A stretch of 40,740 nt of DNA from Pedobacter sp. (GCA_050253415.1 JBFWJC010000009.1:1-40740), one strand, 5' to 3'; shown: positions 1,227 through 21,332, counted from the first letter of the stretch. Notes: a model not told the origin generated them from the sequence alone. Program-made: numbers and translations.

Positions 1227-1227
1227 A

Positions 1228-3261: not shown

Positions 3262-5271
3262 CTACAATTTAACTTTATCCGTAGACACCAACCAGGGATT
3301 TTTCTCTTTAAGATTAAACCCGAGTTTTGTGTCCGGATTCGGTATCAATAGTCCCTTGATTTTTTTTCGTTGATTTCGGCCACTGGCCGACACGATATCA
3401 TATTCAAAAATATTTTGGCCAGTCTGTGTCTTTAGGTTGATCTTCTTTTTTTGCAACTCTCGCTGTGACCGGTCCCACTTGATACCGGTATCGCGCTCAC
3501 AGGCCCGGAAGATGGCAGGGGAGACCAAAAACAGTCCTTCTTCGACACGGTGGACCATGTTCGCTGGCTGGTTGGCCGGTATCTTTCCTTCCTTCAAGCC
3601 TGTAATGAGCCACTTTATAAAGAGAGCACCAGCCGAGTCAGGATCATCGAACACGACCGGTGCCTCTGCGTTCTCAATAACAAAGGCATTGTGTTTTGCC
3701 ACCTCACTTGATTTGGCTGTCGATGCTTTATGGTATATCTCGGCCATAATCTTTTTGTGTTCGTCCTCAGAAGTGTCCGATTCAGCCTCTGGTGGTGCAT
3801 TTACTTCTGAATAGGTATCAGTCTCAACCGGTGCATCAGTGTCTTCATAGTCGTATTCAGTATCGATACTGTCATCAAAACCGGACAAATCTTCATCCGG
3901 AACAGGTTCGCCAACGCCTGGACCAATCAGCTCATCGAGCGGGCCGATCTCGTCCTCGATTGCAACTTCGGTTTCTGGTTTGGGAGGGCTGGTCGGTGAG
4001 TGGTCAGTATCTTTAGGCTCCGTACTGACTTTCTTTTCGGGTAATGATTTTGCTTCAGGCTTGGTTTTAACTGGTTCTGGATCAGTAGTTTTTGGAGCAT
4101 CTTTTTTCGGTTTAGGCTTATCCTTGATCGGGTCACCATTCACGTCGACCAATTCGACGGATAAGCTTTCGACCGGTGTCGGTCTATTTTCAATGTCAGG
4201 CCAAATCTTAGCTGCTGGGACTTTGAGCATTGAAAGATTTGAGTTCCATTCATCCAACGTAACTTTGACTTTCCAAATGGCCTTGTCGTCATTCGGAACA
4301 ATCACCTCAAACTGCTGTAGTTCATCCATCATCCGGACATTATCGTTTGGTACCGATTGGCCTTCCGACCGCATACGCTCTTTGATTACATCGAGGGTTC
4401 GCTTAGATGCAAAATACGCCCAATCTCCGTCGACAAACCCTGCTGCACCTTTGCGGTTGACAGGAAGGGCGTTTTCCTTCACAAGAGTGCGCCACGCGCG
4501 AAGAATTCGCTCTGAAAGCGGTAGCTGGGCTGGCTTCGCATTAATTGATTGAATGTTGCCGCCCAGGTTGGCCACGACGGATGCTTGGTCTGCTTTCTGA
4601 ACGATCGGACTGATGACAGATTCCGCATAGTCTCCGACCATGAAATGGATTAACGCCCCGAAAGCTTCTTCATCCTGCATAATCCATTTCATGGTACTGG
4701 GCGATAAAAACTCATGAAGAACAAACGCGGGCAGCCGTTCGTGAAATTTATGTTTTCGGTTGGGATTAAACTTAATCTGATAATTTTCCGGCGGCTGGCC
4801 GGGCGACATTAAATGCCATTGTCTTCCTGTACTTGGATCCACTTGTCGGATATCGGTTACGATTTTGCCGGAGTCATGCAACAGAGCAGAAATATAAACA
4901 ACGTATGTCCACACGTCCTTTCTTTGCTCGATCTCTTCTGGCGTTACGCCGGGAGGTAGGATGACTCCACGGCGTAACCGCAACGCATTGATGACAATCT
5001 CGATCGTGTGCTGCAACATGCCGCCACGAGTCGAGTGGTGATGTGCTTCAGATGCCGGTACCTGCTGCATGTACTCGGCGTACTTTTGCAGCGGCTCCAG
5101 GTATAGGTGGTCAAAATGATTTTTTGAAAGCCCGGCCAGCTCGTAAATTTCCCGGAGTGCGGATTCGTAAGGACATAGCAGCTTATCGTGCGACAGTCGA
5201 GCGAAAGTGTTTTTGCTTTGTTGCTTCGGCTCGCTCTGCTTGCCGAAGATATTTTTAAGGATTGACAGCAT
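3262..5271 (-). CDS. traI: MOBH-family relaxase (TraI_2, TIGR03760-like)
   Basis: PASEAHHHS..GG.L.H and ALLHDSGK (HD) motifs; C-terminal N...MVHRVEEGLFLVSPAIF domain; start taken at ATG 5271 (MLSILKNIFG). Confidence 0.92.
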   Translation of the reverse strand: MLSILKNIFGKQSEPKQQSKNTFARLSHDKLLCPYESALREIYELAGLSKNHFDHLYLEPLQKYAEYMQQVPASEAHHHSTRGGMLQHTIEIVINALRLRRGVILPPGVTPEEIEQRKDVWTYVVYISALLHDSGKIVTDIRQVDPSTGRQWHLMSPGQPPENYQIKFNPNRKHKFHERLPAFVLHEFLSPSTMKWIMQDEEAFGALIHFMVGDYAESVISPIVQKADQASVVANLGGNIQSINAKPAQLPLSERILRAWRTLVKENALPVNRKGAAGFVDGDWAYFASKRTLDVIKERMRSEGQSVPNDNVRMMDELQQFEVIVPNDDKAIWKVKVTLDEWNSNLSMLKVPAAKIWPDIENRPTPVESLSVELVDVNGDPIKDKPKPKKDAPKTTDPEPVKTKPEAKSLPEKKVSTEPKDTDHSPTSPPKPETEVAIEDEIGPLDELIGPGVGEPVPDEDLSGFDDSIDTEYDYEDTDAPVETDTYSEVNAPPEAESDTSEDEHKKIMAEIYHKASTAKSSEVAKHNAFVIENAEAPVVFDDPDSAGALFIKWLITGLKEGKIPANQPANMVHRVEEGLFLVSPAIFRACERDTGIKWDRSQRELQKKKINLKTQTGQNIFEYDIVSASGRNQRKKIKGLLIPNPDTKLGFNLKEKNPWLVSTDKVKL

Positions 5272-5278
5272 CGGCAAC

Positions 5279-5653
5279 TCACTTAAAAAAGCCGTCAAGC
5301 CATTGCTTGACTTGGTATAGATCAGGTGTGGAGAATTGTGCCTGGTAGACACTCACTTTGTTGTGATTGCGTGACCAGGTGTCGAATCGCTCTTCGAGCG
5401 GATTCCATTTTGCTTTCGGTGAGCGGGCGTAGGCGCGGATTTCGAACAGGCCTGTTTCGATTAATCGTTCGGCCAAGTTGGCTGTTAACCCTATCCCGCT
5501 TGTTGGATCTGGATTAGACCAATCCAGGCCGTCCAAATCTTCCAAGCCAGGCATCTTGATTTCGACGTAAGCATCAAGCCCGGTAAACCGTGATGCCAAC
5601 AACTCAAGTGCAGCCTTAGCGGCAGAACAATTACTCGCTTCAATCGGCGTCAC
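5279..5653 (-). CDS. Hypothetical protein upstream of relaxase
   Basis: ORF 5279..5674; likely GTG start at 5653 overlapping upstream stop (GTGA); ends 8 bp before relaxase start. Confidence 0.6.
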   Translation of the reverse strand: MTPIEASNCSAAKAALELLASRFTGLDAYVEIKMPGLEDLDGLDWSNPDPTSGIGLTANLAERLIETGLFEIRAYARSPKAKWNPLEERFDTWSRNHNKVSVYQAQFSTPDLYQVKQWLDGFFK

Positions 5654-6282: not shown

Positions 6283-7632
6283 ATGCCTATTTTCGCTTTA
6301 ATTGATGGTAACAGCTTTTATGCGTCCTGTCAGATAGCCTTTGAACCAGCTCTACGTCATCGACCGGTCGTTGTTTTATCGAACAACGATGGCTGCATCG
6401 TTGCAGCCAATGCAATCGCCAAATCGTTGAACCAAGAATTAATGGCCAAAGTTAAAAATTTGGGGCAGGGAGGGTATCGTTCGGCCAATCCGACCAATAT
6501 GATGTTCCAACCATATTTCAAAGTGAAATGGTTGCTGGACAAACACCGGGCGGCGGTGTTCAGTTCGAACTATGAACTCTACGCGGATATGTCGTCCAGG
6601 ATGCACAGCATCATAGGGGAGTTTGCTCCAAACCAAGAGGTCTACTCGATCGATGAAAGTTTCATCGATCTAACCGGGCTGTCTCATTTGAATTTGACGC
6701 ATTATGGCCAAGAGATAAAACAGTCTGTTTTACGATCGCTTGGCTTGCCGGTCGCGGTTGGAATTGGCCCATCCAAGACCTTGGCCAAGCTTGCCAACCA
6801 TCTGGCCAAAAAACACGCTGGCTATGACGGCGTGTTGGATTTGACAGCGCTTCCGGAGTCGGTAGTCGACTCTTTGCTGGGTCACGTCGACGTGGGCGAC
6901 ATTTGGGGTATAGGACGGCGGCTTTCAAGCCGACTGAATGCAGAGGGCATACAATCGGCCTTCGACTTGAAGCATGCCAATACCAAACGGATCCGGAAAA
7001 CATACGGCGTTGTTGTCGAGCGCACCGTCCAGGAGCTTAATGGTATTTCATGTTTGAGCCTCGAAGAGGTGTACGCAGACAAGAAGCAAATCATTTCATC
7101 CCGATCGTTTGGAAAGCCGGTTGCAGATTATCTCCAGCTTGAACAAGCAGTGATATCGTATGTCAGCCGGGCCGCTGAAAAATTACGTCGACAGAAAGGG
7201 GTGTGCTCGATGGTTTCGGTTCACATTACAACGAATCGGTTTAAGCCCGGCCACTATACCAACACCCGAACCATCCCTTTGATTTATCCATCGGACAATT
7301 CCATCTTGTTGGCCAAGCATGCCAGGCGAGCATTGAAATCGATTTGGGTACCAGGCCTGGCTTATCATAAGGCTGGTGTAGTCTTATCGGAAATCATGCC
7401 TAAAGGCCCACTTCAGGAGGACATATTTGCGCCAGGCCCGACCTTCTCCGGAAACCCGAAACAAGATAGACTTATGAGTGTTTTGGACCAGGTCAATCAA
7501 AAGGAAGGGCGGGGCAGTTTGTTCTTGGCGTCGACGGGGATTCCAAAGAAAAACACCTGGTCGATGCAGCGGAACTTAATGTCACCGCGCTACACGACCA
7601 GGTGGGATGAGATGCTGAGGGTTGGGGGCTAG
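6283..7632 (+). CDS. umuC: Y-family DNA polymerase V catalytic subunit (UmuC/RumB-like)
   Basis: LIDGNSFYASC, VVVLSNNDGC, SSNYELYADMS, YSIDES, C-terminal W.MQRNLMSPRYTTRW. Confidence 0.95.
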   Translation: MPIFALIDGNSFYASCQIAFEPALRHRPVVVLSNNDGCIVAANAIAKSLNQELMAKVKNLGQGGYRSANPTNMMFQPYFKVKWLLDKHRAAVFSSNYELYADMSSRMHSIIGEFAPNQEVYSIDESFIDLTGLSHLNLTHYGQEIKQSVLRSLGLPVAVGIGPSKTLAKLANHLAKKHAGYDGVLDLTALPESVVDSLLGHVDVGDIWGIGRRLSSRLNAEGIQSAFDLKHANTKRIRKTYGVVVERTVQELNGISCLSLEEVYADKKQIISSRSFGKPVADYLQLEQAVISYVSRAAEKLRRQKGVCSMVSVHITTNRFKPGHYTNTRTIPLIYPSDNSILLAKHARRALKSIWVPGLAYHKAGVVLSEIMPKGPLQEDIFAPGPTFSGNPKQDRLMSVLDQVNQKEGRGSLFLASTGIPKKNTWSMQRNLMSPRYTTRWDEMLRVGG

Positions 7633-7643
7633 ATACTCATATT

Positions 7644-8333
7644 CTATTTTTTGGGTTTTTTGGGTTTTGGCCAACCAGAAGTTAAACCATCAATGTGTTC
7701 ATAAAGATCTGGGTTTATGTGGTTCCACATAGCATCCAATACAAAATCGATACCTTCACGCCTAGCCAATTTAGCTGCTGGAACAAAATCACTATCACCG
7801 GCAACCAAGATTATTTGGTCAACTCGCTCCTTTAAAGCTAAAGCAGCAATATCTGTCCCAATCATCATATCAACACCTTTTTGCTTAACTTCAAGCCGAA
7901 CATCGTTCTCTGACAAGTCTTCGATGGTTATAGTTCGGTTAAGCAGTGCTTTAGACACATCAGGCTTTATTACCCACTCTTTTCCACCCTCAAGACGTCC
8001 AAGTCGCAGAGCCACTTTTCTCTGCTTACGCAACTCCTGATGGAGTTCATTTCTAAAAATAGCAGAATCGGTATCTTTTAGAGATATACCTTTCTTAGTT
8101 ACTGGGTTCTGTACTCGCTTATCAAGCGGAATGCAATCATAAAAAATGATTCGATAGATGGATTTGTGATTAACGTTTTTTCCATTCGTTTTATTGACTT
8201 GTCTGACAGCTTGTAAACTAGCGGCAACAATCTTTCGCGCCATTTCAACCGGCGCAAGGAGCGCACCATAAAGAGAATTATAACGCTTTACCAAATAAGC
8301 CCCATCAATAAGAATGACAACCTTGTTATCCAT
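7644..8333 (-). CDS. NYN-domain (LabA/DUF88, PIN-fold) ribonuclease
   Basis: ILIDGAY, IIFYDC, QKGVDMMIGTD, LVAGDSDFVPAAKLARREG; GGAGA RBS before ATG 8333. Confidence 0.92.
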   Translation of the reverse strand: MDNKVVILIDGAYLVKRYNSLYGALLAPVEMARKIVAASLQAVRQVNKTNGKNVNHKSIYRIIFYDCIPLDKRVQNPVTKKGISLKDTDSAIFRNELHQELRKQRKVALRLGRLEGGKEWVIKPDVSKALLNRTITIEDLSENDVRLEVKQKGVDMMIGTDIAALALKERVDQIILVAGDSDFVPAAKLARREGIDFVLDAMWNHINPDLYEHIDGLTSGWPKPKKPKK

Positions 8334-8349
8334 TAAATCATCTCCCAGA

Positions 8350-8418
8350 AACAAAAAAGCCCCAGATTTCGGCAGCCAATTATTGCTTAGGCTAGCTACT
8401 CTCTGAGGCACTATGGTG
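8350..8418 (-). ncRNA. Putative structured small RNA / attenuator upstream of NYN gene
   Basis: Nested stems GCCUCAGA/UCUGGGGC and GUAGCUA/UGGCUGC followed by U6, between promoter and RBS. Confidence 0.55.
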
Positions 8419-8421
8419 GCA

Positions 8422-8450
8422 AGAATATAAAATATTTTTACATTTGTCAA
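8422..8450 (-). promoter_or_regulatory. Sigma70 promoter for sRNA-NYN unit
   Basis: TTGACA-N17-TATTCT. Confidence 0.75.
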
Positions 8451-8476: not shown

Positions 8477-8815
8477 CACACTTTAAGTGTGATTCGGTTC
8501 AGCCCTTAAAGACGCACGGCCAGCCAGGGCCGGGCGTCGCCCGTAGCCCTTAAGCTGCCCACCATGTTGGGGCAGGCCCTTACGGATAAGGCCTTTCCCC
8601 GTAAGGCCTCCCGTCCAGTATTTCCTTTCCTTTGAACCATTCCCGTTTTCCCTTCCCTTGGTGGCCGCCCACGGCCACCGGCCATTACGCCCTTATCCAA
8701 ATCGCAGCGAGTTGTCATTCCTAATCGAGTTTTGGGGCAACTTGATGATGTTAAATGGATCTGAAATTATCCACAAATTCTGTGAACAACTCTTTCTAAG
8801 TTGGGGCAGGCCATG
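8477..8815. other. Non-coding hairpin/repeat cluster, candidate oriT and/or oriV
   Basis: IRs at 8477-8491, 8555-8575, 8578-8606, 8660-8679; pyrimidine tract; 13-bp direct repeat GTTGGGGCAGGCC (8566, 8800); DnaA box TTATCCACA 8767-8775. Confidence 0.5.
8697..8723 (+). promoter_or_regulatory. Conserved 27-bp putative transfer-activator box, copy 2 (opposite orientation)
   Basis: CCAAATCGCAGCGAGTTGTCATTCCTA, reverse complement of the motif; faces the + strand ORFs at 8863. Confidence 0.7.
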
Positions 8816-9438: not shown

Positions 9439-9461
9439 AAAAAGGCTCCAAATGGAGCCTT
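9439..9461. terminator. Intrinsic terminator between convergent operons
   Basis: AAGGCTCCA-AA-TGGAGCCTT stem with A-run on left (U tail for minus strand). Confidence 0.75.
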
Positions 9462-9471
9462 AGGTGGTTTT

Positions 9472-9588
9472 TTAACTGTGCTTGTGGTTTTGCTTGTGCT
9501 TGTGGTGTAGAGCGATACCCAAGGCACCGGCACCAATAACAATTACCGTAGCAAATCCGACAAGCTGCATTAGCATTTCAGTAGTCAT
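9472..9588 (-). CDS. 38-aa single-TM peptide with His/Lys tail
   Basis: AGGAGG RBS, ATGA overlap with upstream stop; MTTEMLMQLVGFATVIVIGAGALGIALHHKHKQNHKHS. Confidence 0.7.
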   Translation of the reverse strand: MTTEMLMQLVGFATVIVIGAGALGIALHHKHKQNHKHS

Positions 9589-9776
9589 TTGGCACCTCCT
9601 GTGTTTATTGAAAGTATACCATAAACAGAAACCAGCAACATTAAAAGAAGCAAACAAGCAACTATAAACCCAAACCAGTCACCATTCTGGAATGCAGGAT
9701 AGCCAAATGCTCCAAATTGACCAAATGCTGTAATTTCTACAGCCCTAGCCAGAAAAGTTTTTTGTTCTTTATTCAA
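9585..9776 (-). CDS. 63-aa membrane protein
   Basis: AAGGAGGAG RBS then TTG at 9776; MNKEQKTFLARAVEITAFGQFGAFGY...hydrophobic C-half. Confidence 0.7.
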   Translation of the reverse strand: MNKEQKTFLARAVEITAFGQFGAFGYPAFQNGDWFGFIVACLLLLMLLVSVYGILSINTGGAK

Positions 9777-9779
9777 GGC

Positions 9780-9944
9780 ACTCCTCCTTCGTGAAAGAGA
9801 TACACCTTGTCCTACTAGGAAGGCGTATCCCAGTAGGGTTAAAAACAAAAAGCATTACTTATTTTAAAACGCGCAACTACGTTTTTTTAAGGGTGCTGTC
9901 ATTTGACAGCAAGGGCTTCGTTCAGGATGGAACGATACATATTT
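9780..9944 (-). repeat. Structured leader repeat, copy A
   Basis: 28-bp identity (9917-9944) with 12599-12626 plus covarying hairpins shared with copy B. Confidence 0.8.
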
Positions 9945-9980
9945 ACCCTTCAATAATAACGATTGAACAAATGATTTTCC

Positions 9981-10009
9981 AGTATAAATTAACCGTTGTG
10001 ACTGAACAA
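9981..10009 (-). promoter_or_regulatory. Putative sigma70 promoter for leader A
   Basis: TTGTTC-N17-TATACT. Confidence 0.5.
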
Positions 10010-10561
10010 TTTGTTTAACGCCCTGAATACGGTAGCCCTAGACACACCATAATCTCGCCCAATATCTTCGACACTTCTTTCGTTTTCCGGGGAGTCCAGA
10101 ATCATTTTGATTGATTTCGCCTGTGCTGTCGACAGCTTTGGTTTTCGACCGCCTTTTCTTCCTCTTGCACGGGCTGCCTTAAGGCCCGCTGACGTTCTTT
10201 CGCGAATGATATTCCTTTCGAACTCGGCCAAGGCGCTGAAAATATGAAATATCAACTTTCCGGATGGCGTGGATGTCTCAATGTTGTCGGTAATTGATAC
10301 AAATTGAATACCGCGTTCGCTTAGATCGTTGACGATGTTGATCAGGTCTTTAATTGACCGGCTAAGCCGGTCAAGTTTCCAAACGACCAACGTGTCTCCA
10401 GAGCGCAGCGCCTTGAGCACATTCAATAATTCGGGGCGGTCATTCTTTGCACCGGACCCGGTTTCTTCGTAGATCGTCTCACAACCAAACTCTTCAAGGG
10501 CATCCTTTTGCAGAGCCAGGTCTTGCTTGTGTGTCGAAACTCTTGCGTAGCCGATTCGCAT
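9989..10561 (-). CDS. Serine recombinase (resolvase/invertase family)
   Basis: MRIGYARVST, GDTLVVWKLDRLSRS, RERT.AGL.AARARGRKGGR, C-terminal HTH (GVSRATVFR). Confidence 0.95.
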   Translation of the reverse strand: MRIGYARVSTHKQDLALQKDALEEFGCETIYEETGSGAKNDRPELLNVLKALRSGDTLVVWKLDRLSRSIKDLINIVNDLSERGIQFVSITDNIETSTPSGKLIFHIFSALAEFERNIIRERTSAGLKAARARGRKGGRKPKLSTAQAKSIKMILDSPENERSVEDIGRDYGVSRATVFRALNKLFSHNG

Positions 10562-10562
10562 A

Positions 10563-11063
10563 TTACAACCTTACAATTTCATCAAGGTCATTACGTGCCT
10601 GTGATTCTCGCTCTTTAATTCTTTCTTCTACCAGAACCCATCGAACACCTTGATATTCTGCCAATACAGGAGGGCGGTGCAAAGTCTCAAAATAAGAGCG
10701 CAATCTTTCGCTCACGGTGCAGCCTTTTTTGATAGCAGCGATTTCCTTTGAATTTTTCGACGGTGTAAGTTCAGTTAAGTCTTGAATTTTGGCTTCATGC
10801 TCATTTATTTTTCGTATAACCTTAGCCCATAAAACCCCCATTACATTGCCCAAAATGCCAAGAATTCCTACAAAAATCACAAAAACGGGGTTTAAAAAAT
10901 AAACATACAATACCGCGTTCAATATAGCTAAAAATAAAATGCCTAAGGTGAAGCTATTGTATTTTTGATACTCTTCTTCATTGGTTTGGAGCTGTTTTTT
11001 TCGGGTGAGTAACTCTTTTTCAATTTCTTCATGGGTCGGCGGGACTTTCATATCAAACAACAT
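10563..11063 (-). CDS. Hypothetical 2-TM membrane protein
   Basis: 166 aa, coiled-coil-like N-terminus, two hydrophobic segments, GGAGA RBS, abuts resolvase. Confidence 0.75.
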   Translation of the reverse strand: MLFDMKVPPTHEEIEKELLTRKKQLQTNEEEYQKYNSFTLGILFLAILNAVLYVYFLNPVFVIFVGILGILGNVMGVLWAKVIRKINEHEAKIQDLTELTPSKNSKEIAAIKKGCTVSERLRSYFETLHRPPVLAEYQGVRWVLVEERIKERESQARNDLDEIVRL

Positions 11064-11153
11064 AGTCTTCTCCGAGATTTATCGTCACTACCTTAAGTAA
11101 TATCATTCAATACTATTATCTGGAATACTCTTTTCCAGAACCGGCCAATCAAT

Positions 11154-11399
11154 TTAAAAGTTTTGATGGTAGCGTGTAAAGACTCCGAACAAATAATCAA
11201 CTTCGAAAATTTCTAGGTCATAGAGCTTTTGAAACATTTCTTCGATACAAGCGGATGGCTTTTTTCCCGGAAAATGGAAAGTCATCTCGCCATGCTTGAA
11301 TGACGTCATGTAATTCGAACGCAATTCTTCAGGTTCATTGGAATCATTATTGACGATGTGAATTAGGATGTTTTCGTATTCAGACATAAATAGTCTCAT
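11154..11399 (-). CDS. Hypothetical protein
   Basis: 81 aa ORF (alternative start 11387). Confidence 0.5.
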   Translation of the reverse strand: MRLFMSEYENILIHIVNNDSNEPEELRSNYMTSFKHGEMTFHFPGKKPSACIEEMFQKLYDLEIFEVDYLFGVFTRYHQNF

Positions 11400-11525
11400 A
11401 TCTTAATGTTGTTATTAGTTTTTGAACCTTTGATTATGATACCTAATTATGAAACTGATTTTTAAAAAATAAAGTGATTTTCTGAATACTTCTTTTGGAG
11501 TATCATAAATATACGTTTGTGAGAC
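11393..11525. other. Putative res site for the serine recombinase
   Basis: Repeated GTNTCATA / TATGANAC half sites; dyad GTATCATA-N10-TGTGAGAC at 11500-11525; AT-rich, upstream of resolvase operon. Confidence 0.5.
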
Positions 11526-11538
11526 TCTTATGGGCAAT

Positions 11539-11563
11539 AAAAAAGGCCGCATTTGCGGCCTTT
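11539..11563 (-). terminator. Intrinsic terminator
   Basis: AAAGGCCGCA-TT-TGCGGCCTTT stem with A6 run. Confidence 0.8.
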
Positions 11564-11572
11564 GTGTAAAGC

Positions 11573-11689
11573 TTAATGAGCTTCTTTAAGTTTTTGTCTG
11601 CGCTTTAATTCTTTGTCGATTCTCAGGCCAATATAAAATAGCCCTGAACCAAACAGGAAAGCAGCGAACAATAAAATGTAAGTCAACAT
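11573..11689 (-). CDS. 38-aa single-TM peptide with basic tail
   Basis: Not in ORF track; AAGGAG RBS; MLTYILLFAAFLFGSGLFYIGLRIDKELKRRQKLKEAH; followed by terminator. Confidence 0.7.
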   Translation of the reverse strand: MLTYILLFAAFLFGSGLFYIGLRIDKELKRRQKLKEAH

Positions 11690-11703
11690 TTGGTACTCCT
11701 TCC

Positions 11704-11985
11704 TTATAGTCCAGTTTTAATTAATTTAATTCCCATTATAGCAAATATACTGGCCAGTACAATTCTGGCTAATATTTCTAGTTCCGGGGAGCCTGCGTTT
11801 ACGCCGACTAACAAACCAAAAAATCCTGAACCGATTATGACAAACCCAAGGCTCTCTTTTAAAGATTTCAATTTTATTTCTTCAGCATCTGCTAAATGAT
11901 TGAAGAAGTCCTCAAGAGAATCTCGCAAAAGAAAGAAAATAATTGTAAAAAGCCAAAAAAGGCCAATGAACTTAAGAACAATCAT
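11704..11985 (-). CDS. Hypothetical membrane protein (about 3 TM)
   Basis: 93 aa hydrophobic, GAGGGG RBS. Confidence 0.75.
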   Translation of the reverse strand: MIVLKFIGLFWLFTIIFFLLRDSLEDFFNHLADAEEIKLKSLKESLGFVIIGSGFFGLLVGVNAGSPELEILARIVLASIFAIMGIKLIKTGL

Positions 11986-11997
11986 CTTCGTACCCCT

Positions 11998-12429
11998 CTA
12001 GGCCAAAGCCCAAATTTTCTTTTCTTTCTGGAAGCGATAACCGGTTTGTTTTACGATTGCCACTTTCCATTTGAAAAGTTCATCCTTAAACTGGATTTCG
12101 ACATATTTGGCCATTGCTTTTGAGCGATGCCACTTTCGAGCATCATTCACAAATGGCTTCAGGCCGATCTGGTTTAAGAACTGACGTTGAGCATCTGAAG
12201 GGTGGTCGTATAACTCGAACACCTCCAGTTGACGCTTAAGATTATTCGCTTGAACCTTTTCGTTACTTGCAGAACTTCTGCTCGTTGAGCTTTGGCCGTT
12301 GTTTTCGGCCTTGTCGCCAAAAAACAATTTGGCCAAATTAACTTCCGCGCCCGTGAATAAGACGATTGGAAGCAAACAAATAACGCAAGCAAGCTTAAAA
12401 ATGTTGAATAGAATTTTGAATAGTCTCAT
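11998..12429 (-). CDS. Hypothetical protein with N-terminal membrane anchor
   Basis: 143 aa, AGGAGA RBS, first gene behind leader B. Confidence 0.75.
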   Translation of the reverse strand: MRLFKILFNIFKLACVICLLPIVLFTGAEVNLAKLFFGDKAENNGQSSTSRSSASNEKVQANNLKRQLEVFELYDHPSDAQRQFLNQIGLKPFVNDARKWHRSKAMAKYVEIQFKDELFKWKVAIVKQTGYRFQKEKKIWALA

Positions 12430-12626
12430 GGTGTATCTCCTGATTTAGAAATAAAAAAGGGGATACACCAAGCCCCATCGGGGAAGGAATATCCCCAATG
12501 GGTTTAAGAAAAGTTTTAAGCAAGACCTCCGATCAATGATCGTTGTCGGCAAGTGAGGTCGAAGGCCGACTAAGGGTACCGTCAAGCGACGGCAAGGGTT
12601 CGTTCAGGATGGAACGATACATATTT
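12430..12626 (-). repeat. Structured leader repeat, copy B
   Basis: Homologous to 9780-9944; GGTGTATCCCC can pair with upstream GGGGATAT or with RBS GGAGATACACC. Confidence 0.8.
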
Positions 12627-12640
12627 TCAAATCAAAGTTG

Positions 12641-12669
12641 ATTCTAAATTATCCTTCTTTCACTGACAA
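12641..12669 (-). promoter_or_regulatory. Putative sigma70 promoter for leader B
   Basis: TTGTCA-N17-TAGAAT. Confidence 0.6.
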
Positions 12670-12670
12670 G

Positions 12671-13942
12671 TTATTTAAAAGAGATTACTTTTTGTTTTGG
12701 TCGAATCAGTTTATCAGTTAATTTAACGCTATTTGCTTTTTGTCGTGAGCCACCATCCTTTGTTTTAATTCCTAACTCACCATATTGAGATAAGTCAAAT
12801 AGTGCTTTTTGGAAGTGATTCAACCCCGCAGGAGTTGCTGTTTGAATTGCATCTTGAATAAAGCTTTGGACACTTATAATTTCTTGATTATAAGAATGGA
12901 ATTTATCTAAGAGTTCTGTTTGTAAAGCTTCTACGGTAAGACTACCTGATTGATCATCAAAGGTGAAGTCAAAACCAGATTGAATATCATTTTCAGGATC
13001 ATATTCAAACATACTGATGCCATGCCCGGCATCTTGTACAATTTCATTAGAGGTTTCCCAAAACACTTGATTCATTTCTTCACGAGCCCTGAAATTGTTT
13101 GATAGATGTAGATAAAGATAGGCTCGGTTACTTTTTTGTGACCTAATGAATAATGAATTACCCCAAGTAGCTCCAGATTCCTTATGATATGCACTTGCAA
13201 TCGTGTATTGAATAGCGATTCTTTCCAGTTTTTTATTTAGTCCAGGTGCACTCCTAAACTGTTCAATGACTTCGTCGGTAATGATATGATCAATACCTGC
13301 ATTTTTAAGGGCTGTTTTATATCTGGGATCTTCGCTAATATAGGAAATAATATTATCTGTTGAAAGTGTCAAAATTACTTCAGCGCGGTTGCCGAGTGTT
13401 GAAAATATCTGTTTTATATGAGCTAGAGTAGCGTCTTTATAGCCATATTGATCCAACAAAAAAATAACTTTACATCTTTTCTGATTTAGTTTTTTTAAAA
13501 GAATTGGAAGCGCATCATGAAATGTATTTTGAATGACATGGATGTCTTGATCGATTCTTGAACGGTAGCCATAGCTGTCTAAGGTTTGATTTAAGCTTTG
13601 AATCGCATATTTACAGCTGTCAATGAAGTATTTATCACCAATTACTTGAAAGTCCTTCACCTTGTGCATATCTTTTCTATATGCAGTGCAAGCAGCTTCA
13701 GCTTCTTTAAGACTTTCTAGAATAATCAAAGGTGACCCCAAGTGCAGATTGCCTGAAGAGGTATTATAAATGCCACCACCAGAAAAACCATCCACAATAT
13801 CTAAGTTGATTTTCTCTTGCATGGGATTTGGAGATAATGCTTTAACGAATCGAATGAGGTACTCTCTGAGAGCTTCATGTTTTGCAAGACTATGATCTTC
13901 AATTATTGAACCATCTTCCCATTCATATTCTTTTTTTGGCAT
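12671..13942 (-). CDS. tcmP: Three-Cys-motif partner protein (TcmP-like, methyltransferase-fold)
   Basis: HSLAKH, IVDGFSGGG, GSPL, FLLDQYGY motifs; adjacent to DUF5131. Confidence 0.85.
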   Translation of the reverse strand: MPKKEYEWEDGSIIEDHSLAKHEALREYLIRFVKALSPNPMQEKINLDIVDGFSGGGIYNTSSGNLHLGSPLIILESLKEAEAACTAYRKDMHKVKDFQVIGDKYFIDSCKYAIQSLNQTLDSYGYRSRIDQDIHVIQNTFHDALPILLKKLNQKRCKVIFLLDQYGYKDATLAHIKQIFSTLGNRAEVILTLSTDNIISYISEDPRYKTALKNAGIDHIITDEVIEQFRSAPGLNKKLERIAIQYTIASAYHKESGATWGNSLFIRSQKSNRAYLYLHLSNNFRAREEMNQVFWETSNEIVQDAGHGISMFEYDPENDIQSGFDFTFDDQSGSLTVEALQTELLDKFHSYNQEIISVQSFIQDAIQTATPAGLNHFQKALFDLSQYGELGIKTKDGGSRQKANSVKLTDKLIRPKQKVISFK

Positions 13943-13959
13943 TAATCCATATTCCTTAT

Positions 13960-14727
13960 TTATCGAAGCTCAACATTGATACCTTGTATAGTTGGTTTCT
14001 GATAATCGGGCATATCATCCCAATATTTTCCTTTTAACATCCGACCGTTTTCTTTTTTAGAGCGTTTTTTTCCATCTGCCCCCCAGCCTCCCCATTGTTT
14101 AAAGAAGAAGCTAACATCGGCTTTTTCACATTGTTCTTGGATGTTTTCCGCCCATTCACCTTTCATGGGTCTTGCTTTAGGACCGGATTCTCCACCGACA
14201 ATTACCCAGTCAATGCCTTCAAGATTTATTCGACCTAAATCTTCCAATAAAGGTTCTACTGACAGAAAGCGAATAGTGGCATCAATTGTTCTTAGATGAT
14301 CGATTCTTCGAAGCCCTTGTTTCTGATTCTCGACCGTTACTCCAATCCAAGCATTACTTGGTGGAGTGCGTTCCTGAAAATAGTCCGCCATTCTTTGCGA
14401 ACGCTTCGTAAGGATTTGATAAATATGATGTGGCGTTTCATCAATAACATTGAAAATACGATCAATAAATTCAAATGGTACCTTTTCATGGAATAGATCA
14501 CTCATTGAGTTTACAAAGTATTTTGTCGGTTTTTTCTTTCTGAGAGGTTGTTCAAGGCGGTTCCCCATCATGCTCACTTCAAAACCGTTTTCATAGCCAG
14601 GTGTATTCATTGCTTTAAGGCGTTTTGCCATAGCTTCAGCATAGCAATGTTTACAACCATCTGATACTTTGTCACACCCAGTTACAGGATTCCAAGTTTC
14701 TTCAGTCCATTCAATTTTTGAGCCCAT
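13960..14727 (-). CDS. DUF5131 (phage Gp37/Gp68) radical-SAM-like protein
   Basis: SKIEWT..TWNPVTGCDKVSDGCKHCYA (CX6CX2C), FVNSMSDLFH, WVIVGGESG, FFFKQWGG. Confidence 0.93.
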   Translation of the reverse strand: MGSKIEWTEETWNPVTGCDKVSDGCKHCYAEAMAKRLKAMNTPGYENGFEVSMMGNRLEQPLRKKKPTKYFVNSMSDLFHEKVPFEFIDRIFNVIDETPHHIYQILTKRSQRMADYFQERTPPSNAWIGVTVENQKQGLRRIDHLRTIDATIRFLSVEPLLEDLGRINLEGIDWVIVGGESGPKARPMKGEWAENIQEQCEKADVSFFFKQWGGWGADGKKRSKKENGRMLKGKYWDDMPDYQKPTIQGINVELR

Positions 14728-14853
14728 AACAAACTCCAAAATAAAAATAAAAACCTATTTTACAATAATACAGTCTAGAGGAAAGTGAATTGACCTTGTT
14801 CATGCGTTTATTTCCAAGGTGCATCTTGACAAGGGAATCGGATTTGTCACACT

Positions 14854-15438
14854 CTAAACCGTGGCCTCAGTCAAGCCTTGTAACATTAATTCAACTTTTC
14901 TTTTAATCTGTTCACTTGAACGAATATCGTCTTTTGAAAAACTCACATAATTAATACCAGCAGATCGGCATATTTGTTTGATGATTTCGTCTCTTTTCTG
15001 AACATTTTCATTACTGGAAGAGCCTCTTGCCCGGGCACCATAGACTTCAACAATACAAACCGGATTCATGTTCCGGTCTGTTAGGAGCATATCAACCCTG
15101 TTTCCACCAATCAAATGCTTGATGTTTTCGCTATAAACAATAAACTCTCCAACGCATACTTGCGGATAACAATAGAGGCCTGCTTTTAATTTAGATAGAG
15201 AGGCTAAAATTTCAAAAAATACCTTTTTTTCGCCGGGATTCAGTAATGCGTTCTTGTGTAATTTAGGGGCAGAACGAATCAGTTCAATATCTTGTTGATG
15301 TGAAGAAATTTCAGTTTCTTCAACTGTTGTCTTGGAATCTTCTTTAAAACCTCTGGGGTTAGGCTCCTTTTTATTTTTCAGGAACAAAACGAGAAGTACC
15401 ACAAAAATTAAAAGTATAAATAATGCTTCAATCGTCAT
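14854..15438 (-). CDS. DUF2726-domain protein with N-terminal TM
   Basis: LLNPGEK, PQV, RVDMLL, IVEV, KRDEIIKQIC..AGI pattern. Confidence 0.75.
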   Translation of the reverse strand: MTIEALFILLIFVVLLVLFLKNKKEPNPRGFKEDSKTTVEETEISSHQQDIELIRSAPKLHKNALLNPGEKKVFFEILASLSKLKAGLYCYPQVCVGEFIVYSENIKHLIGGNRVDMLLTDRNMNPVCIVEVYGARARGSSSNENVQKRDEIIKQICRSAGINYVSFSKDDIRSSEQIKRKVELMLQGLTEATV

Positions 15439-15556
15439 AATATTCAAATACGTATAATAAACTAGAGATATGGATTTTGCCTCATCGTCCATAAATACGC
15501 AAATTTGGTATCAATTTGCCTCAATTCAAAAATAATTTAAACCGGTATAAAAAGGA

Positions 15557-16755: not shown

Positions 16756-18435
16756 TCATTTTTTGAGTCTTTTTACTCCTGATGAGGCCATTCCTGCACC
16801 TGTAGATCCAGCACTTGATAAACCATCCATTTCGCCCTTTGTCATTTCAAACGCTTCAAACCCTGCAACGGCTATCATCTTACCGAAATATACCGGTATC
16901 CCAAGATAGAAAAAAAACACTGACATAAGAAATAGAAAGGTGTTTATCGCTTCGTCAGGATTTTTAATATCGCCTAAACTTAAACTTGGAAATAGAAGGC
17001 TGACAAGGCCTTCATCTATCATCCCTGCAATTGCCCACCAGAGTGATAACAACATGGCTCCCATCAAGTAAACAACCAGAGCGGCAAGCGCACCCGGCTT
17101 GAACGAAGCGAACGGTAGAATGACTGCCATTAGCATGATTATGGTCATGATAATGCCAGCCTGAACCATCAATAAGCCAGGTTTTAGCAACTCCAGTACA
17201 ATACCCAGCGTAAAGGAAGCTGCTCCCGCGCCAGCTGTCGCAAAAACCCCTTGAAACCAATCCCACATATCTTGTCCGATAGATTGGTTTTGAAGGGATG
17301 GTGTATCTCGCTTAGCAAGCAAATTCGGTTGGTCTGACTTTAATAGTCTTTGAACAAGGACATCCTCAGCATCCTGTTCTCCAAATGTATTATTTGCCCA
17401 TTGCCAAATATTGGAAAGACCGGCACTTAACGTGCCGGTACCGACATCATCAAGCATCTTTTGGGAAGCCAATTGAATGGCTGCATGGTCTGCTAAACGT
17501 TCCTCTAGACCATCTCTATCATATTCTCCATACATAGAATAGCCGTTGGTATCACGATTGCCAGTCCACCACATATAGCATGATGGTGACGTGGCAAACT
17601 GCACTGTTTCACCGTTGGCATTCGGTTTATCCAAGATAAATGTAGTCTGAAGACCATATTGTTCAGCGGTGTCGTATGGCATTCTTTCCGCCGTACCGTA
17701 ACAACTGCCGGTTGATTTTTGAGTTGATGAACATGACAAATAATACCCCGGAGTATTAAGGAAAAGCTTATTGCCGACGTAATTCAGGTCATCGCTTTCA
17801 TCTGGCTCAGGCAGAGGCTGTTTCGTTTCATTCTGATAACGATACAAAGTTGGCAAATAACAGGACGAGTAAAAGTCATTAACTTCCGCTTTAAGTTGGC
17901 TATCTTTAATTTTCATTGTTGTGAAAGCTGTTAATAAACTTTTGAGGTGCGGAGTGTCTAATGATTCGATCCATTCAGTCATTTGGTTAGTGAAGGCTTT
18001 CGTACTCATCGTGACAAACCATAGACCAGGCGGAATAGGGATGCTCCCATATTGTTTCGTTTGTTGGGTTGCATTCAGTACGATGTTAGATTCACTTTGT
18101 GCTTCTTGCGATTCAAGTTGATTTTTCTCCATTTTAATTTGTATCGCATTAACATATTCTGAAGCATCAAATGTTGTGTTTGGGTTTGGAATCCAAAACA
18201 ATAGAATCACAATCATCATACTGTAGATGTCTATGTAATTTCGACGCCATTCAACGATGGAAGCAAGTCCCGCTTCTTGGCTCTTTCGTGTATCAGCCCA
18301 ATTGGAAACCATCACCCAAACAAAAGGGATATAGTGCAAGTTTAACGTGTAGATGAACAGGAAAAACTTGGTATAGATATCCCAACCTGTTGCAGTTAAG
18401 GCGACTTCGATATAATTATCGGAATAAAGCATCAT
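16756..18435 (-). CDS. traG: TraG N-terminal domain protein (MPF-G mating pair stabilisation)
   Basis: LYSDNYIE..L.GW start, EVNDFYSSCY, SCYMWW, C-terminal TM bundle; synteny. Confidence 0.85.
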   Translation of the reverse strand: MMLYSDNYIEVALTATGWDIYTKFFLFIYTLNLHYIPFVWVMVSNWADTRKSQEAGLASIVEWRRNYIDIYSMMIVILLFWIPNPNTTFDASEYVNAIQIKMEKNQLESQEAQSESNIVLNATQQTKQYGSIPIPPGLWFVTMSTKAFTNQMTEWIESLDTPHLKSLLTAFTTMKIKDSQLKAEVNDFYSSCYLPTLYRYQNETKQPLPEPDESDDLNYVGNKLFLNTPGYYLSCSSTQKSTGSCYGTAERMPYDTAEQYGLQTTFILDKPNANGETVQFATSPSCYMWWTGNRDTNGYSMYGEYDRDGLEERLADHAAIQLASQKMLDDVGTGTLSAGLSNIWQWANNTFGEQDAEDVLVQRLLKSDQPNLLAKRDTPSLQNQSIGQDMWDWFQGVFATAGAGAASFTLGIVLELLKPGLLMVQAGIIMTIIMLMAVILPFASFKPGALAALVVYLMGAMLLSLWWAIAGMIDEGLVSLLFPSLSLGDIKNPDEAINTFLFLMSVFFFYLGIPVYFGKMIAVAGFEAFEMTKGEMDGLSSAGSTGAGMASSGVKRLKK

Positions 18436-19856
18436 TTAACTCGCATTTGTGGCAGAGAACTTTCTTTTTGGCCAACGTTAGATTTTCTGCCAGGTTCCTG
18501 AATGGCTTGGCTTTCATAGATGGAGTTCGCTAGGTTCTTCACAAGCTTATGGCGAATATCGTACTCAAATGAAGTTTGTTGAATTTCTGCTTCGAGCAAT
18601 TTGATTTTATCTTCAATCGCATCTTTAGCGGGCTTAACAGCAGCGATGTTATGCTCTGACAGGCTCGAAATTAGAACCCTTCGAAGCAAAATGGCACGAT
18701 CTATAACAAGCCCAAGGGTAACTTCATCCGCTAAGGTTTGAATCATATTTTGGCTCATGTCGAATGCTTTGATTTTCTCGACGAGGTCCGAAGTAACGAT
18801 TGTGTTTCCGGGCATTTCGGACAACAAGAGAATTCGTTCTTCATCGTCCGTTTCTTCATAAGCTGCCATTAATTTTTCTTCAACTAGCGGGAGCATTCTC
18901 ATAGCTACCCCAGTGAGGCCAATACCAGATTGGCCTTTTGGAATCGCTTTAGGAGTTTTGGTTGTATAGATTTCCTGTTCGCCGAGTAACTCTACGGCCC
19001 AGTCACGCATGATTTCAGGGCTTGAAAAACTGGAGACCAGTTTAGTTTGGATCTGTGCGTCTTTAGTAGGCTTTGATAGAGTGGTCACATTTTCACGTTT
19101 CAGGATAATGTTATATCCTGTTACTGTGGCCATTGACACGATAGCGATTGGATCCTGGCCTTTGCCGCCTGCTTTAATGATACCTTTTCCGGGTATTGGG
19201 AGGTTAACTCCATCATCCCCGGCATTCTTTCCAACCTTTTCCATCGCGTCATTGACATCTGGGTTCGACTCGGACTCTTCGTCCAAGGTTGTCGCTTGCG
19301 CCATTTCTGTCCATTGCTTATAAGGGTTTTCACCGGCGGCAATCTGCCGCTCAATTTCTTCACAAGATGCCGCGTTGAATTTCATTTCTTCTTCAGCTCG
19401 AAACACATTAGTTTGAAGTAACTCATATAGGTCAGGTGAATTGCGGGATAGTGCCAATGCCGGAAGACCGGCAATGGCACTGCTTGCTGCTTGAGACATG
19501 GTATTCATTGCATCATCTACACCGTTTTGAATGTCGTTGAAAAAATTTTGCAAGCTTGCACTGGGGTCAAATTGGCCGCAACTATAACCGGCTCCAAATT
19601 TCGCTTTACCTTCCACCTTTAGGTTTGCATTGTGTGACGGCGGGACAGAAAGAGGTCTGGCTCCGCCCAGTTTGTAGTAGATTTCTGAATTCTTTTCCAG
19701 AGCACCCAATTCAGATGTGGAGAGTTTTTCCTTGTATACCTTTAGGCCTTCCTTGCCTAAAGAATCCAAATTTAAGTCTACGGCATATGCAGCTTGGGTG
19801 GTAATAGCCATCCAAATAGCGGAAACGATAAGAAGCTTTTTAGGTTGAAACGACAT
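18432..19856 (-). CDS. ICE protein PFL_4711/TIGR03755 family
   Basis: YYKLGGA, SCGQFD, PDLYELL, SCEEI; signal peptide; synteny. Confidence 0.85.
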   Translation of the reverse strand: MSFQPKKLLIVSAIWMAITTQAAYAVDLNLDSLGKEGLKVYKEKLSTSELGALEKNSEIYYKLGGARPLSVPPSHNANLKVEGKAKFGAGYSCGQFDPSASLQNFFNDIQNGVDDAMNTMSQAASSAIAGLPALALSRNSPDLYELLQTNVFRAEEEMKFNAASCEEIERQIAAGENPYKQWTEMAQATTLDEESESNPDVNDAMEKVGKNAGDDGVNLPIPGKGIIKAGGKGQDPIAIVSMATVTGYNIILKRENVTTLSKPTKDAQIQTKLVSSFSSPEIMRDWAVELLGEQEIYTTKTPKAIPKGQSGIGLTGVAMRMLPLVEEKLMAAYEETDDEERILLLSEMPGNTIVTSDLVEKIKAFDMSQNMIQTLADEVTLGLVIDRAILLRRVLISSLSEHNIAAVKPAKDAIEDKIKLLEAEIQQTSFEYDIRHKLVKNLANSIYESQAIQEPGRKSNVGQKESSLPQMRVK

Positions 19857-19982: not shown

Positions 19983-21332
19983 TTAAAGCTCACCTTTTTC
20001 AATTTTCTCAATCAGAGTTGAAATGTCAGCTCCATAGTTGCCAATAACTTCTTTCTTTTCTGTTGTTGGCGGCCAAGCATCATCAAATGAATCCGTTGCC
20101 AAACACATCTTATTCATTGTTGCTGCTTGCTTACGTCTACGACGATCAAACTTAGGCTTTTTGTATTTATGTTTGTGAATGCCTTCGGAGAATAGAATCT
20201 TGGCTCTAAGAGCTTCAAAAGAGTACCCTCGCCCCAATCTATTCATAATGCGAATAAGGTTGTTTAACGACTCTGTATAAGCGTTAGTGACAGGGTGCTG
20301 AAAGTAATTCAGAATATAAGGCTGCCAGTTATCAAAAGCTCTAATTAAGTCGGCATAGGCATTGGCTATCTCAGGCTTAATCATTTCACGCCATTCATGA
20401 TATCGCTGATTTGCTTCTATCAAATTTTTAGCATCGTAGATTTCATAGAATGCTTCTTTAGTAGAGTAAGCCAAGGCTAGTTGCGGATAATTGTTTAACC
20501 AGCCGGACATAATAAATTCTTCCTGGTCGGATAGCTCATATCTACGTTTTAAAAGTATGAAACGATCATTTTTCAAGTGTCGTCTTTGCTTTGGCTCTAG
20601 TTCGGCTCTCAATGATTTACGAACCTTGTCTAATGCATCGTTCGCCATACGTACCACATGGAACTTGTCGATTACTATCATGGCGTTTGGCAACACCAAC
20701 TCAACTGCATCTTTATAAGGCCGCCACATATCCATCGCAACGTACTTAATACTATCCTTATTAGGCAGGTTACCAAGATAGTTAATCATCGTTTCTTTGT
20801 TGCGGTTTTGCAGTACCTCGACGACGGTATTGTTTTGGATGTTAGTGATAACGCCACGTGGCTTGATTAGATGAATTTCATCTATTCCCATCCATTGAGG
20901 TGTTTCAAATCGAACTGTCTTTTCAAGCTCATTGATGTAGTCATTGAAAACCGATTTAACTGTGCCTTCTGCCACCCCAATATCTTCTGCAATAGAGGCA
21001 AAAGTGTTTTTAATCGCTTTATGACCAATCCAATCCTTTAAACGAATGGTCATCTGGCGCTTGGAGTCGGTTTCAGGGATTGATTCGTAGAAGGTCTTAC
21101 GGCATGATTTACACTGATAGCGTTTTGTATCGACATAAATACCGACTCGCTTACCGTGAATGGGAAGATCACGAATTAGCTGCTCTCGCTTGCCAAATCC
21201 TACAATTTCAGTTGCTTGACAATGCGGGCATAATTCGGCTTGTTGTGTGGTTTCTGCTGTGATGTGGTAATCGTGTTCACTTTCTTCAACACTTAATACA
21301 TTGAAGCTTTTAAGATTCAAAATGTTGGCCAT
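19983..21332 (-). CDS. ISL3-family transposase
   Basis: CPHC..CKSC zinc finger, GIDE, VAMDMWRPY, IDKFHVV, TNAYTESLN. Confidence 0.95.
   Translation of the reverse strand: MANILNLKSFNVLSVEESEHDYHITAETTQQAELCPHCQATEIVGFGKREQLIRDLPIHGKRVGIYVDTKRYQCKSCRKTFYESIPETDSKRQMTIRLKDWIGHKAIKNTFASIAEDIGVAEGTVKSVFNDYINELEKTVRFETPQWMGIDEIHLIKPRGVITNIQNNTVVEVLQNRNKETMINYLGNLPNKDSIKYVAMDMWRPYKDAVELVLPNAMIVIDKFHVVRMANDALDKVRKSLRAELEPKQRRHLKNDRFILLKRRYELSDQEEFIMSGWLNNYPQLALAYSTKEAFYEIYDAKNLIEANQRYHEWREMIKPEIANAYADLIRAFDNWQPYILNYFQHPVTNAYTESLNNLIRIMNRLGRGYSFEALRAKILFSEGIHKHKYKKPKFDRRRRKQAATMNKMCLATDSFDDAWPPTTEKKEVIGNYGADISTLIEKIEKGEL

Follow-up and report, generated by a model that had tools for sequence, protein, structure and literature searches.

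The DNA analysed here (the window) is an entire contig of 40,740 bp (GCA_050253415.1, JBFWJC010000009.1:1-40740) from the 4.1-Mb genome of Pedobacter sp., and a Pfam scan of its open reading frames (ORFs) identifies it as an integrative and conjugative element (ICE) of the MPF_G/MOBH type. In the cargo zone of this ICE, flanked by the relaxase gene and TraG_N, two homologous leaders, designated A and B, precede short operons of small predicted membrane proteins. Each leader comprises a 5' module with two hairpins, P0 and P1, and a 3' module in which a third hairpin, P4, contains a pseudo-Shine–Dalgarno sequence and is followed by an anti-Shine–Dalgarno segment (anti-SD), the real Shine–Dalgarno sequence (SD) and the start codon. 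The features of the two leaders and their operons are as follows.

12669..12641, minus strand: promoter-like site of leader and operon B, TTGTCA-17-TAGAAT (10/12 matches)
12628..12427, minus strand: leader B, ending at the AUG (12429..12427) of a 143-aa ORF
12566..12628, minus strand: 5' module of leader B, with the P0 hairpin (12617..12600), CCCUU, the P1 hairpin (12594..12577) and ACCCUUAG (89.2 bits with the 5' covariance model)
12524..12570, minus strand: pseudoknot domain of leader B, with helices P2 GUCGGC/GCCGAC, P3 CGAUC/GAUCG and PK GACCUC/GAGGUC (score reached by 0/200 shuffles)
12427..12508, minus strand: 3' module of leader B, with P4 (12502..12474, including the pseudo-SD GGGGAUA), the anti-SD (12469..12458), a U-run, the SD region (12441..12430) and the AUG
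11573..12429, minus strand: operon B, small predicted membrane proteins of 143 aa (12429..11998), 93 aa (11985..11704) and 38 aa (11689..11573)
11542..11563, minus strand: terminator-like hairpin closing operon B
9981..9953, minus strand: promoter-like site of leader and operon A, TGGAAA-17-TATTAT (9/12 matches)
9946..9774, minus strand: leader A, ending at the TTG (9776..9774) of a 63-aa ORF
9883..9946, minus strand: 5' module of leader A, with P0 (9935..9918), CCCUU, P1 (9911..9894) and ACCCUUA, not followed by a pseudoknot domain (85.6 bits)
9774..9844, minus strand: 3' module of leader A, with P4 CCUACUGGGA/UCCUAGUAGG, the anti-SD GGUGUAUCUC, the SD AAGGAGGAG and the TTG at 9776..9774 (24.1 bits, E 0.0016)
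9472..9776, minus strand: operon A, predicted membrane peptides of 63 aa (TTG start, 9776..9585) and 38 aa (9588..9472)
9442..9461, minus strand: terminator-like hairpin at the end of operon A, terminator-like when read on either strand

The two promoter-like sites end 7-13 nt before the conserved element, and transcription of both leaders is therefore predicted to start at the beginning of that element. An alignment of the two leaders gives an overall identity of 75%. One 26-mer is found in exactly two places in the window (9917-9942 and 12599-12624), with 0.00 occurrences expected from 100 shuffles, and the identity around it extends to 28 nt in the alignment; no leader copy besides A and B was found in the 4.1-Mb genome. 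The predicted folding energies are -72.8 kcal/mol for leader B (z -6.94) and -57.4 kcal/mol for leader A (z -5.14), and in neither case was any of 200 shuffled sequences as stable. The original prediction had described two homologous structured leaders of this kind on the minus strand, each with a sigma70-like promoter, an identical 28-mer with the dyad TCGTTC-N6-GAACGA, a CCCTT-hairpin-ACCCTTA segment with compensatory changes, and a second module in which P4 hairpins, an alternative pairing of GGGATA with GGTGTATC and pairing to the ribosome-binding site (RBS) could form, all of which can be read in the sequences. What it had called a variable spacer between the modules holds the P2-P3-PK pseudoknot domain in leader B and no such domain in leader A. 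The conserved 28-mer also contains an AUG, some 8 nt from where the transcript is predicted to begin, which opens frames of 29 aa in B (12621..12532) and 13 aa in A (9939..9898) that both begin with MYRSILNE. This frame was considered as a leader peptide and rejected, as it is not conserved in other members of the family.

The 3' module can form three helices around the SD. P4 is a stable hairpin with the pseudo-SD in its 5' arm and loop; in P5, the anti-SD is paired with the real SD plus the spacer up to the start codon; and in the alternative helix, ALT, the pseudo-SD is paired with the anti-SD, the SD is freed and, in copy B, a U-run follows as in an intrinsic terminator. A covariance model of this module built from two copies (R3) gave 42 matches in the examined loci, 39 of them distinct. 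Across these 39 rows, 96.2% of 798 cells of P4 and P5 are paired and all 22 of the 22 pairs change on both sides, which was matched by 0/500 shuffles. A partner-swap test was performed on 33 rows, after removal of five opposite-strand echoes, one incomplete row and exact duplicates from the 42 matches. Cognate partners paired better than non-cognate ones for ALT (-14.7 vs -10.8 kcal/mol), P4 (-19.5 vs -13.5 kcal/mol) and P5 (-12.1 vs -8.8 kcal/mol), and for none of the three helices did any of 10,000 re-pairings reach the cognate mean. Furthermore, the P4 loop, which is dispensable for P4 itself, covaries with the 5' part of the anti-SD. The excess of cognate pairing indicates selection on each of the three mutually exclusive helices. 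The combination of P4 and P5 is the minimum free energy (MFE) structure in 17/18 platforms, and freeing the SD costs 2.8-17.7 kcal/mol among these 18 (17.7 for B, 10.5 for A).

In the 5' domain, a 22-row alignment shows 99.2% of 252 cells of P0 and P1 paired and 11/13 pairs changing on both sides. None of 500 shuffles matched four of the five covariation measures, and 33/500 matched the fifth, the number of further pair types; sliding the 3' partner lowers pairing to 27-47%. All six pairs of P0 change on both sides, with 98% of cells paired, and all 154 cells of P1 are paired, including 15 G.U or U.G and no A.C on the coding-sense strand. The wobble pairs of P1 point to the coding-sense strand, that is, the mRNA, as the strand that folds. 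Outside the stems, only CCCUU, 5' of P1, and RCCCUUAG, 3' of P1, are conserved. The following domain is an H-type pseudoknot, in which the P2 and P3 hairpins are followed by a strand able to pair with the P2 loop. It is present in 16/18 full-length leaders, including leader B, with at least seven different PK sequences and with 0/200 shuffles reaching the score in each, and is absent from leader A and from one copy in genome G201. Thus, covariation in P0/P1 and in P4/P5/ALT bears out the proposal that the leaders form a structured, cis-acting family whose covarying switch can mask the RBS.

Further copies were sought at several levels. A degenerate pattern scan of genome contigs returned 115 matches, approximately the number expected by chance, of which blast screening left one true copy (L107), from a metagenome-assembled genome of Thiomicrospira sp.; this third copy carries compensatory changes in every stem. 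Searches with a covariance model of the 5' module (R1) and with its rebuild from 22 matches (R2) brought the total to 28 copies in 5 genomes: two in the Pedobacter sp. genome itself (R2) and the others in 4/99 genomes of the Thiomicrospira-like family or order (five in G017, nine in G201, 11 in G205 and one in G235). No copy of the module was found in 150 other genomes of the window's order (R1), in 150 other genomes of the class or in 150 of the phylum; pattern scans gave no match in metagenome contigs (two scans) or viral contigs (one scan), and blastn of leader B against plasmids gave none. R1 matches in G234 and G239 were rejected as members, one being the P0 sequence only and the other partial, and R2 dropped both. 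In the genome-wide search with R3, only leader B passed E<=0.001, the E value of 0.0016 for leader A coming from the locus search.

The 28 copies of the 5' module and the 33 distinct copies of the 3' module all lie within ICEs of the MPF_G/MOBH type. In G017, G201 and G205, they fall into two zones of one ICE, the first being a cargo region that, like that of the window, is bounded by integrase/TraI_2 and TraG_N, and the second having the order SSB-TopB-[leader]DUF3577-...-[leader]ArdC-...-pilus genes. In these three genomes, related leaders precede ArdC (three copies) and DUF3577 (three copies), and the ICEs of the richest genomes carry 5-11 copies each, before unrelated genes. The 3' module also occurs alone between genes in these ICEs. 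Beyond them, R3 yielded 12 matches with E<0.01 in 33 kb of ICEHin1056, pUM505, pSbal02 and pVP157-1, of which 10 have their last base precisely at the third position of an annotated start codon and the other two stop within 3-5 nt of one. The three-helix RBS gate formed by this module precedes STY4534/DUF3577, DUF3560, radC and several hypothetical genes in these records (L174, which is ICEHin1056, L175, which is pUM505, L176 and L177).

In operon A and operon B, the last ORF encodes a 38-aa peptide with one hydrophobic segment and a basic tail (9472-9588 and 11573-11689). The peptide is paired with a two-segment membrane protein of 60-93 aa, a pairing that recurs in G017 and G201, and homologues of operon A lie under the same leader type in these two genomes. 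The small proteins have no Pfam, NCBIfam or PHROG family above threshold, their weak matches being holin-like (Pfam E 6.6e-4, PHROG E 0.0057), and the 93-aa protein of operon B has only two relatives, both unnamed.

The original prediction held the leaders to be undescribed, and in one respect this stands: no Rfam family matches them at its gathering score or at E<=10 (3.4 kb, and 161 nt of leader B), and the related loci gave no Rfam match either. In another respect it does not, because the layout of the 5' domain and its position upstream of DUF3577 are those of the orphan radC RNA motif (RF01754). The gathering score of this family, 40 bits, is not reached in the window, and related loci and the Thiomicrospira-type copies have no match to it at E<=10. 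As a positive control, the model recovered two copies in pUM505 (L175, 3705-3854 at 96.9 bits and 2627-2774 at 76.9 bits), the first of which is followed by an R3 match at 3880-3961 ending on the start codon of the STY4534/DUF3577 gene. The radC consensus consists of a GCUGAC/GUCAGC-type P1 between C-runs, AG, a short hairpin holding GAUC in its loop, a second hairpin and GAUC again (RF01754). The published drawing marks GRYC...GRYC, and the table entry for the motif reads "cis-reg? y, switch? ?" and gives no mechanism (Weinberg et al. 2010, PMC2864571); a term search of the supplements of that paper yielded no text on radC function.

Like radC RNAs, the members of the window family act as 5' leaders for genes carried by MPF_G/MOBH ICEs and plasmids, the window copies preceding operons of small membrane proteins. 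Both have a GCUGAC-type P1 with C-run flanks, AG, and a P2 of 5-6 bp with a loop that can pair with the strand following P3. However, the window family has CCCUU and RCCCUUAG as flanks, where radC has an outer helix enclosing P1; this outer helix and the 3' P4 domain of the Rfam consensus are absent from our alignment, which has a U-rich linker and the RBS gate instead. The window family has one pseudoknot unit (none in copy A), whereas the radC copies in pUM505 have a strong one (0/100 shuffles) in a 3' segment shown by Rfam as a hairpin, and the consensus suggests another upstream. With the same pseudoknot finder, 0/100 shuffles reached the score in both pUM505 radC copies, ICEHin1056 and the Vibrio plasmid, and the unit in pSbal02 was not significant (27/100 shuffles matched it). 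Upstream of the gate, the ICEHin1056 leader before STY4534 reads by eye as P1, CUUUAAG, P2, P3 and an AUUCU/AGAAU pseudoknot and looks radC-like, with no Rfam match at E<=0.01. R2 found nothing in ICEHin1056, pUM505, pSbal02 or pVP157-1. Because neither model matches the other group, the kinship rests on layout and position, and with R2 empty in these four records we file the window leaders, from sequence comparison, as a putative divergent variant of the radC class and not as members of RF01754. A literature search outside the subscription journals turned up only the 2010 discovery paper and a methods preprint on radC RNA and, for DUF3577, ArdC, ICE leaders and anti-restriction, no description of such leaders, although one may exist in those journals.

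Taken together, we are fairly confident that A and B are cis-regulatory RNA leaders that mask the RBS by default, belong to an ICE-borne class including the radC motif and need an input that opens P4. As modelled here, leaders A and B would be the 5' untranslated regions of mRNAs made from their own sigma70-type promoters and would consist of two separable parts, a 5' domain at the transcript start and a 3' RBS gate. Translation is predicted to be masked by default, with P4 and P5 together as the ground state, and, since this state is OFF, an activating input would be needed. An input that opens P4 could let ALT replace P5, freeing the SD for expression, and the single-stranded CCCUU and RCCCUUAG with the pseudoknot might serve as the docking site of a trans-acting protein or RNA from the ICE or the host. 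A protein or RNA seems a more likely partner than the ligand of a riboswitch, given the 5-11 copies per ICE before unrelated genes. In this way the leaders may put a group of ICE genes under a shared signal, namely ArdC and DUF3577 in the relatives and small membrane peptides in the window. The only hint of transient expression upon entry into a recipient is the presence of related copies before ArdC and DUF3577 genes.

Several observations weigh against this interpretation. OFF is the predicted state whether folding is computed at equilibrium or follows the course of transcription, and the model needs a trigger. Opening of P4 by an upstream ribosome was rejected, because in the stand-alone modules translation from upstream would end at stop codons 18-47 nt ahead of P4, and the NYN RNase was rejected as an obligatory partner, its gene being present only in the window ICE and G017. 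Copy A lacks both the pseudoknot and the U-run (2 T of 8), from which it follows that not every feature is needed. The pair counts come from alignments fitted to the models, and the copies come from 5 genomes only and include many paralogues. As for the kinship with radC, RF01754 has no match in the window and R2 none in pUM505 or ICEHin1056. Finally, a CCCTTA-rich non-coding element at 8495-8725 has no extra complementarity to the P4 flank (-13.8 kcal/mol vs -13.5 kcal/mol for shuffled sequences).

This element is listed here with its counterparts in other ICEs.

8495-8725: CCCTTA-rich non-coding element of about 230 nt, conserved in four ICEs (also L123 11235-11475, L148 1420-1680 and L141 11425-11665)

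On the plus strand, it has four CCCTTA repeats (8503, 8547, 8577 and 8690), a pyrimidine-rich tract and covarying hairpins, and it repeats the single-stranded motif of the leaders on the opposite strand. As an antisense opener of P4 the element was rejected, there being no signal above shuffles and only a modest excess of complementarity against RCCCUUAG, which is trivial given its motif content. It could be a decoy, an antisense RNA, a set of iterons or oriT, and a link to the leaders is possible.

The serious rival to masking of the RBS is that the leader acts mainly as a transcription attenuator, with ALT and the U-run as terminator and P4 as antiterminator, and that a released RNA of about 175 nt acts in trans through its CCCUU seeds. 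Its seriousness comes from the terminator-like appearance of ALT and the U-run in most copies, but we regard it as unlikely. When the RNA is folded only up to the base preceding the SD, approximately 11/18 leaders, both window copies included, have the long ALT hairpin as their MFE structure, and at least five T are found among the 8 nt after the anti-SD in 24/33 modules (7 in B, 2 in A). In addition, three 5' modules in other ICEs head ORF-less stretches of about 450 nt that end in a terminator-like hairpin, which implies that the 5' domain is not tied to translation. However, P4, a strong hairpin (mean -19.5 kcal/mol), is made first and is able to form while the anti-SD is still to be synthesised, so that read-through is predicted by default; copy A has no U-run; and the covariation of P5 right up to the start codon would be unexplained if only termination mattered. 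The three stretches (L142 8748..8260, L143 6582..6100 and L144 7101..6640, all on minus strands) are conserved, contain no SD and carry another CCCCUUAG motif. They probably represent a non-coding RNA gene of these three ICEs, which has no equivalent in the window.

Lower still in probability is control at the level of duplex DNA, in which each leader would be a CUP-like promoter-operator cassette with the P0 dyad TCGTTC-N6-GAACGA, at about +10 to +27, as the site where a repressor of the ICE would bind. A and B do not differ at any position of the 28-mer around P0, including the loop and the flank, whereas the whole leaders are 75% identical; this P0 sequence is also found in G017 and G201, and in G234 it occurs without the other parts of the module. 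CUP elements are repeated binding sites of ArdK upstream of leading-region genes, and the leaders resemble the CUP repeats of the IncN plasmids pKM101 and R46 in being a repeated unit upstream of several leading-region or establishment genes that form one regulon (PMC6289460). In contrast to these duplex sites of a repressor, conservation in the leaders follows base pairing on the RNA-sense strand, SD included. Elsewhere in the family, the P0 sequence varies while its pairing is kept, as described above, and P1, PK, P4, ALT and P5 covary as single-stranded structure, which speaks against a fixed operator other than perhaps P0 and leaves an operator as at most an extra layer on one subtype. No ArdK-family match was found among the 44 window ORFs scanned against Pfam.

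We also doubt, more strongly, that this is type I toxin-type control, with the 38-aa hydrophobic peptides as toxins and the mRNAs inert until the leader is processed. In the hok, tisB and zorO leaders, the full-length form keeps the SD or a standby site inaccessible until refolding activates it, and the default-masked SD of A and B resembles this layout. The peptides that end both window operons, with their hydrophobic segment, basic tail and weak holin-like matches, are in line with such a role. Unlike the hok, tisB and zorO leaders, however, the window type serves many genes that are not toxins, the same leader type standing before ArdC, DUF3577 and many unrelated genes, and a check of leaders A and B for antisense transcription revealed no antisense promoter or antisense terminator.

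The operator-only, single-stranded DNA (ssDNA) and recombination-site readings are all weak. An ssDNA switch, with Frpo as one analogue, had been raised in the original prediction; an ssDNA element of the transferred strand, either a Frpo-like promoter or a priming site, is very improbable. An Frpo consists of a single long hairpin, formed on the template strand that is transferred, in which the -35 and -10 boxes are rebuilt. The leaders are instead short separate helices (5-12 bp) without such boxes, they have ordinary duplex promoter-like sites upstream, the wobbles of P1 lie on the coding-sense strand and would be mismatches on the template strand, and one helix contains the SD and start region itself. 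The resemblance is to the arrangement of Frpo, described as ssDNA promoters of plasmid leading regions (PMC11541004, PMC9849209), in that repeated, co-oriented copies lie upstream of anti-defence or establishment-type genes of a conjugative element.

The least probable reading is a role in recombination, with the leaders as direct repeats at which the neighbouring serine recombinase (10561..9989) would excise the 2.7-kb A-B segment. Copy A begins 43 nt after the recombinase stop codon, and G017, G201 and G205 have homologues of the recombinase (66-73% identity) no more than a few kb away from a copy, but there are 5 to 11 copies per ICE, mostly far from any recombinase, G017 has a single copy of the P0 subtype, covariation of the RNA type runs throughout the leaders, and the only joint in reads (9863>11859; one contig with a 21-nt side, from the fragmentary contigs of four metagenome runs) is not at the repeats.

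The remainder of the ICE provides the context of the leaders, and the genes on which the assignment to MPF_G/MOBH rests are the following.

3262-5352: TraI_2 relaxase (Pfam)
39292-40401: integrase (Pfam)
elsewhere in the window: TraG_N, TraU, TraC_F_IV and a TraD-type coupling protein (Pfam)
elsewhere in the window: DUF3438, DUF2895, DUF3487, RAQPRD, DUF4400 and DUF2859 (Pfam)

The cargo neighbours of the leaders are the serine recombinase gene, a TcmP/DUF5131 pair, an NYN-domain gene and UmuC. Defence-like cargo (180-3144, 12671-14739, 14854-15492 and 7644-8450) comprises the S and M subunits of a type I restriction-modification system, TcmP/DUF5131, DUF2726 and NYN-domain proteins. The UmuC-type polymerase gene (6283-7632) has no recognisable UmuD gene adjoining it, and a UmuD-like gene is present in the corresponding zone of G017. 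Within the conjugation cluster, an ISL3-family transposase gene (19983-21332) is flanked by a 474-aa ORF (18432-19856, downstream of TraG_N) and by a 380-aa ORF preceding a DUF1643 gene, both unassigned, and an EAL-domain gene (32773-33606) lies within the transfer cluster.

For the interpretation of A and B as leaders that mask the RBS, one further and improbable step can be proposed by analogy. In T4 gene 32, an ssDNA-binding protein lands on a 5' pseudoknot and the U/A-rich stretch behind it. MPF_G/MOBH ICEs might similarly use a two-part RNA code, a radC-like tag on each transcript plus RBS gates before nearly all establishment genes, read by SSB or DUF3577 in the manner of T4 gp32: free protein would shut the gates, and its titration by ssDNA, whether transferred or replicating, would allow the whole set to be translated. 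If this were true, translation of anti-restriction and establishment genes would sense single-stranded ICE DNA directly, and the orphan radC motif would gain a function.

To conclude, the radC RNA has been an orphan since 2010, and the class appears to be wider than the Rfam model, which the Thiomicrospira-type variant and, by sequence reading, ICEHin1056 escape. In the leaders described here, this radC-like class is coupled to a readable expression platform, three mutually exclusive covarying helices around the SD, and the RBS gate also stands alone before many genes of this ICE family, ICEHin1056, pUM505, pSbal02 and the Vibrio plasmid. Thus, these leaders offer a concrete entry to the post-transcriptional control of establishment and anti-restriction genes in a widespread family of ICEs.

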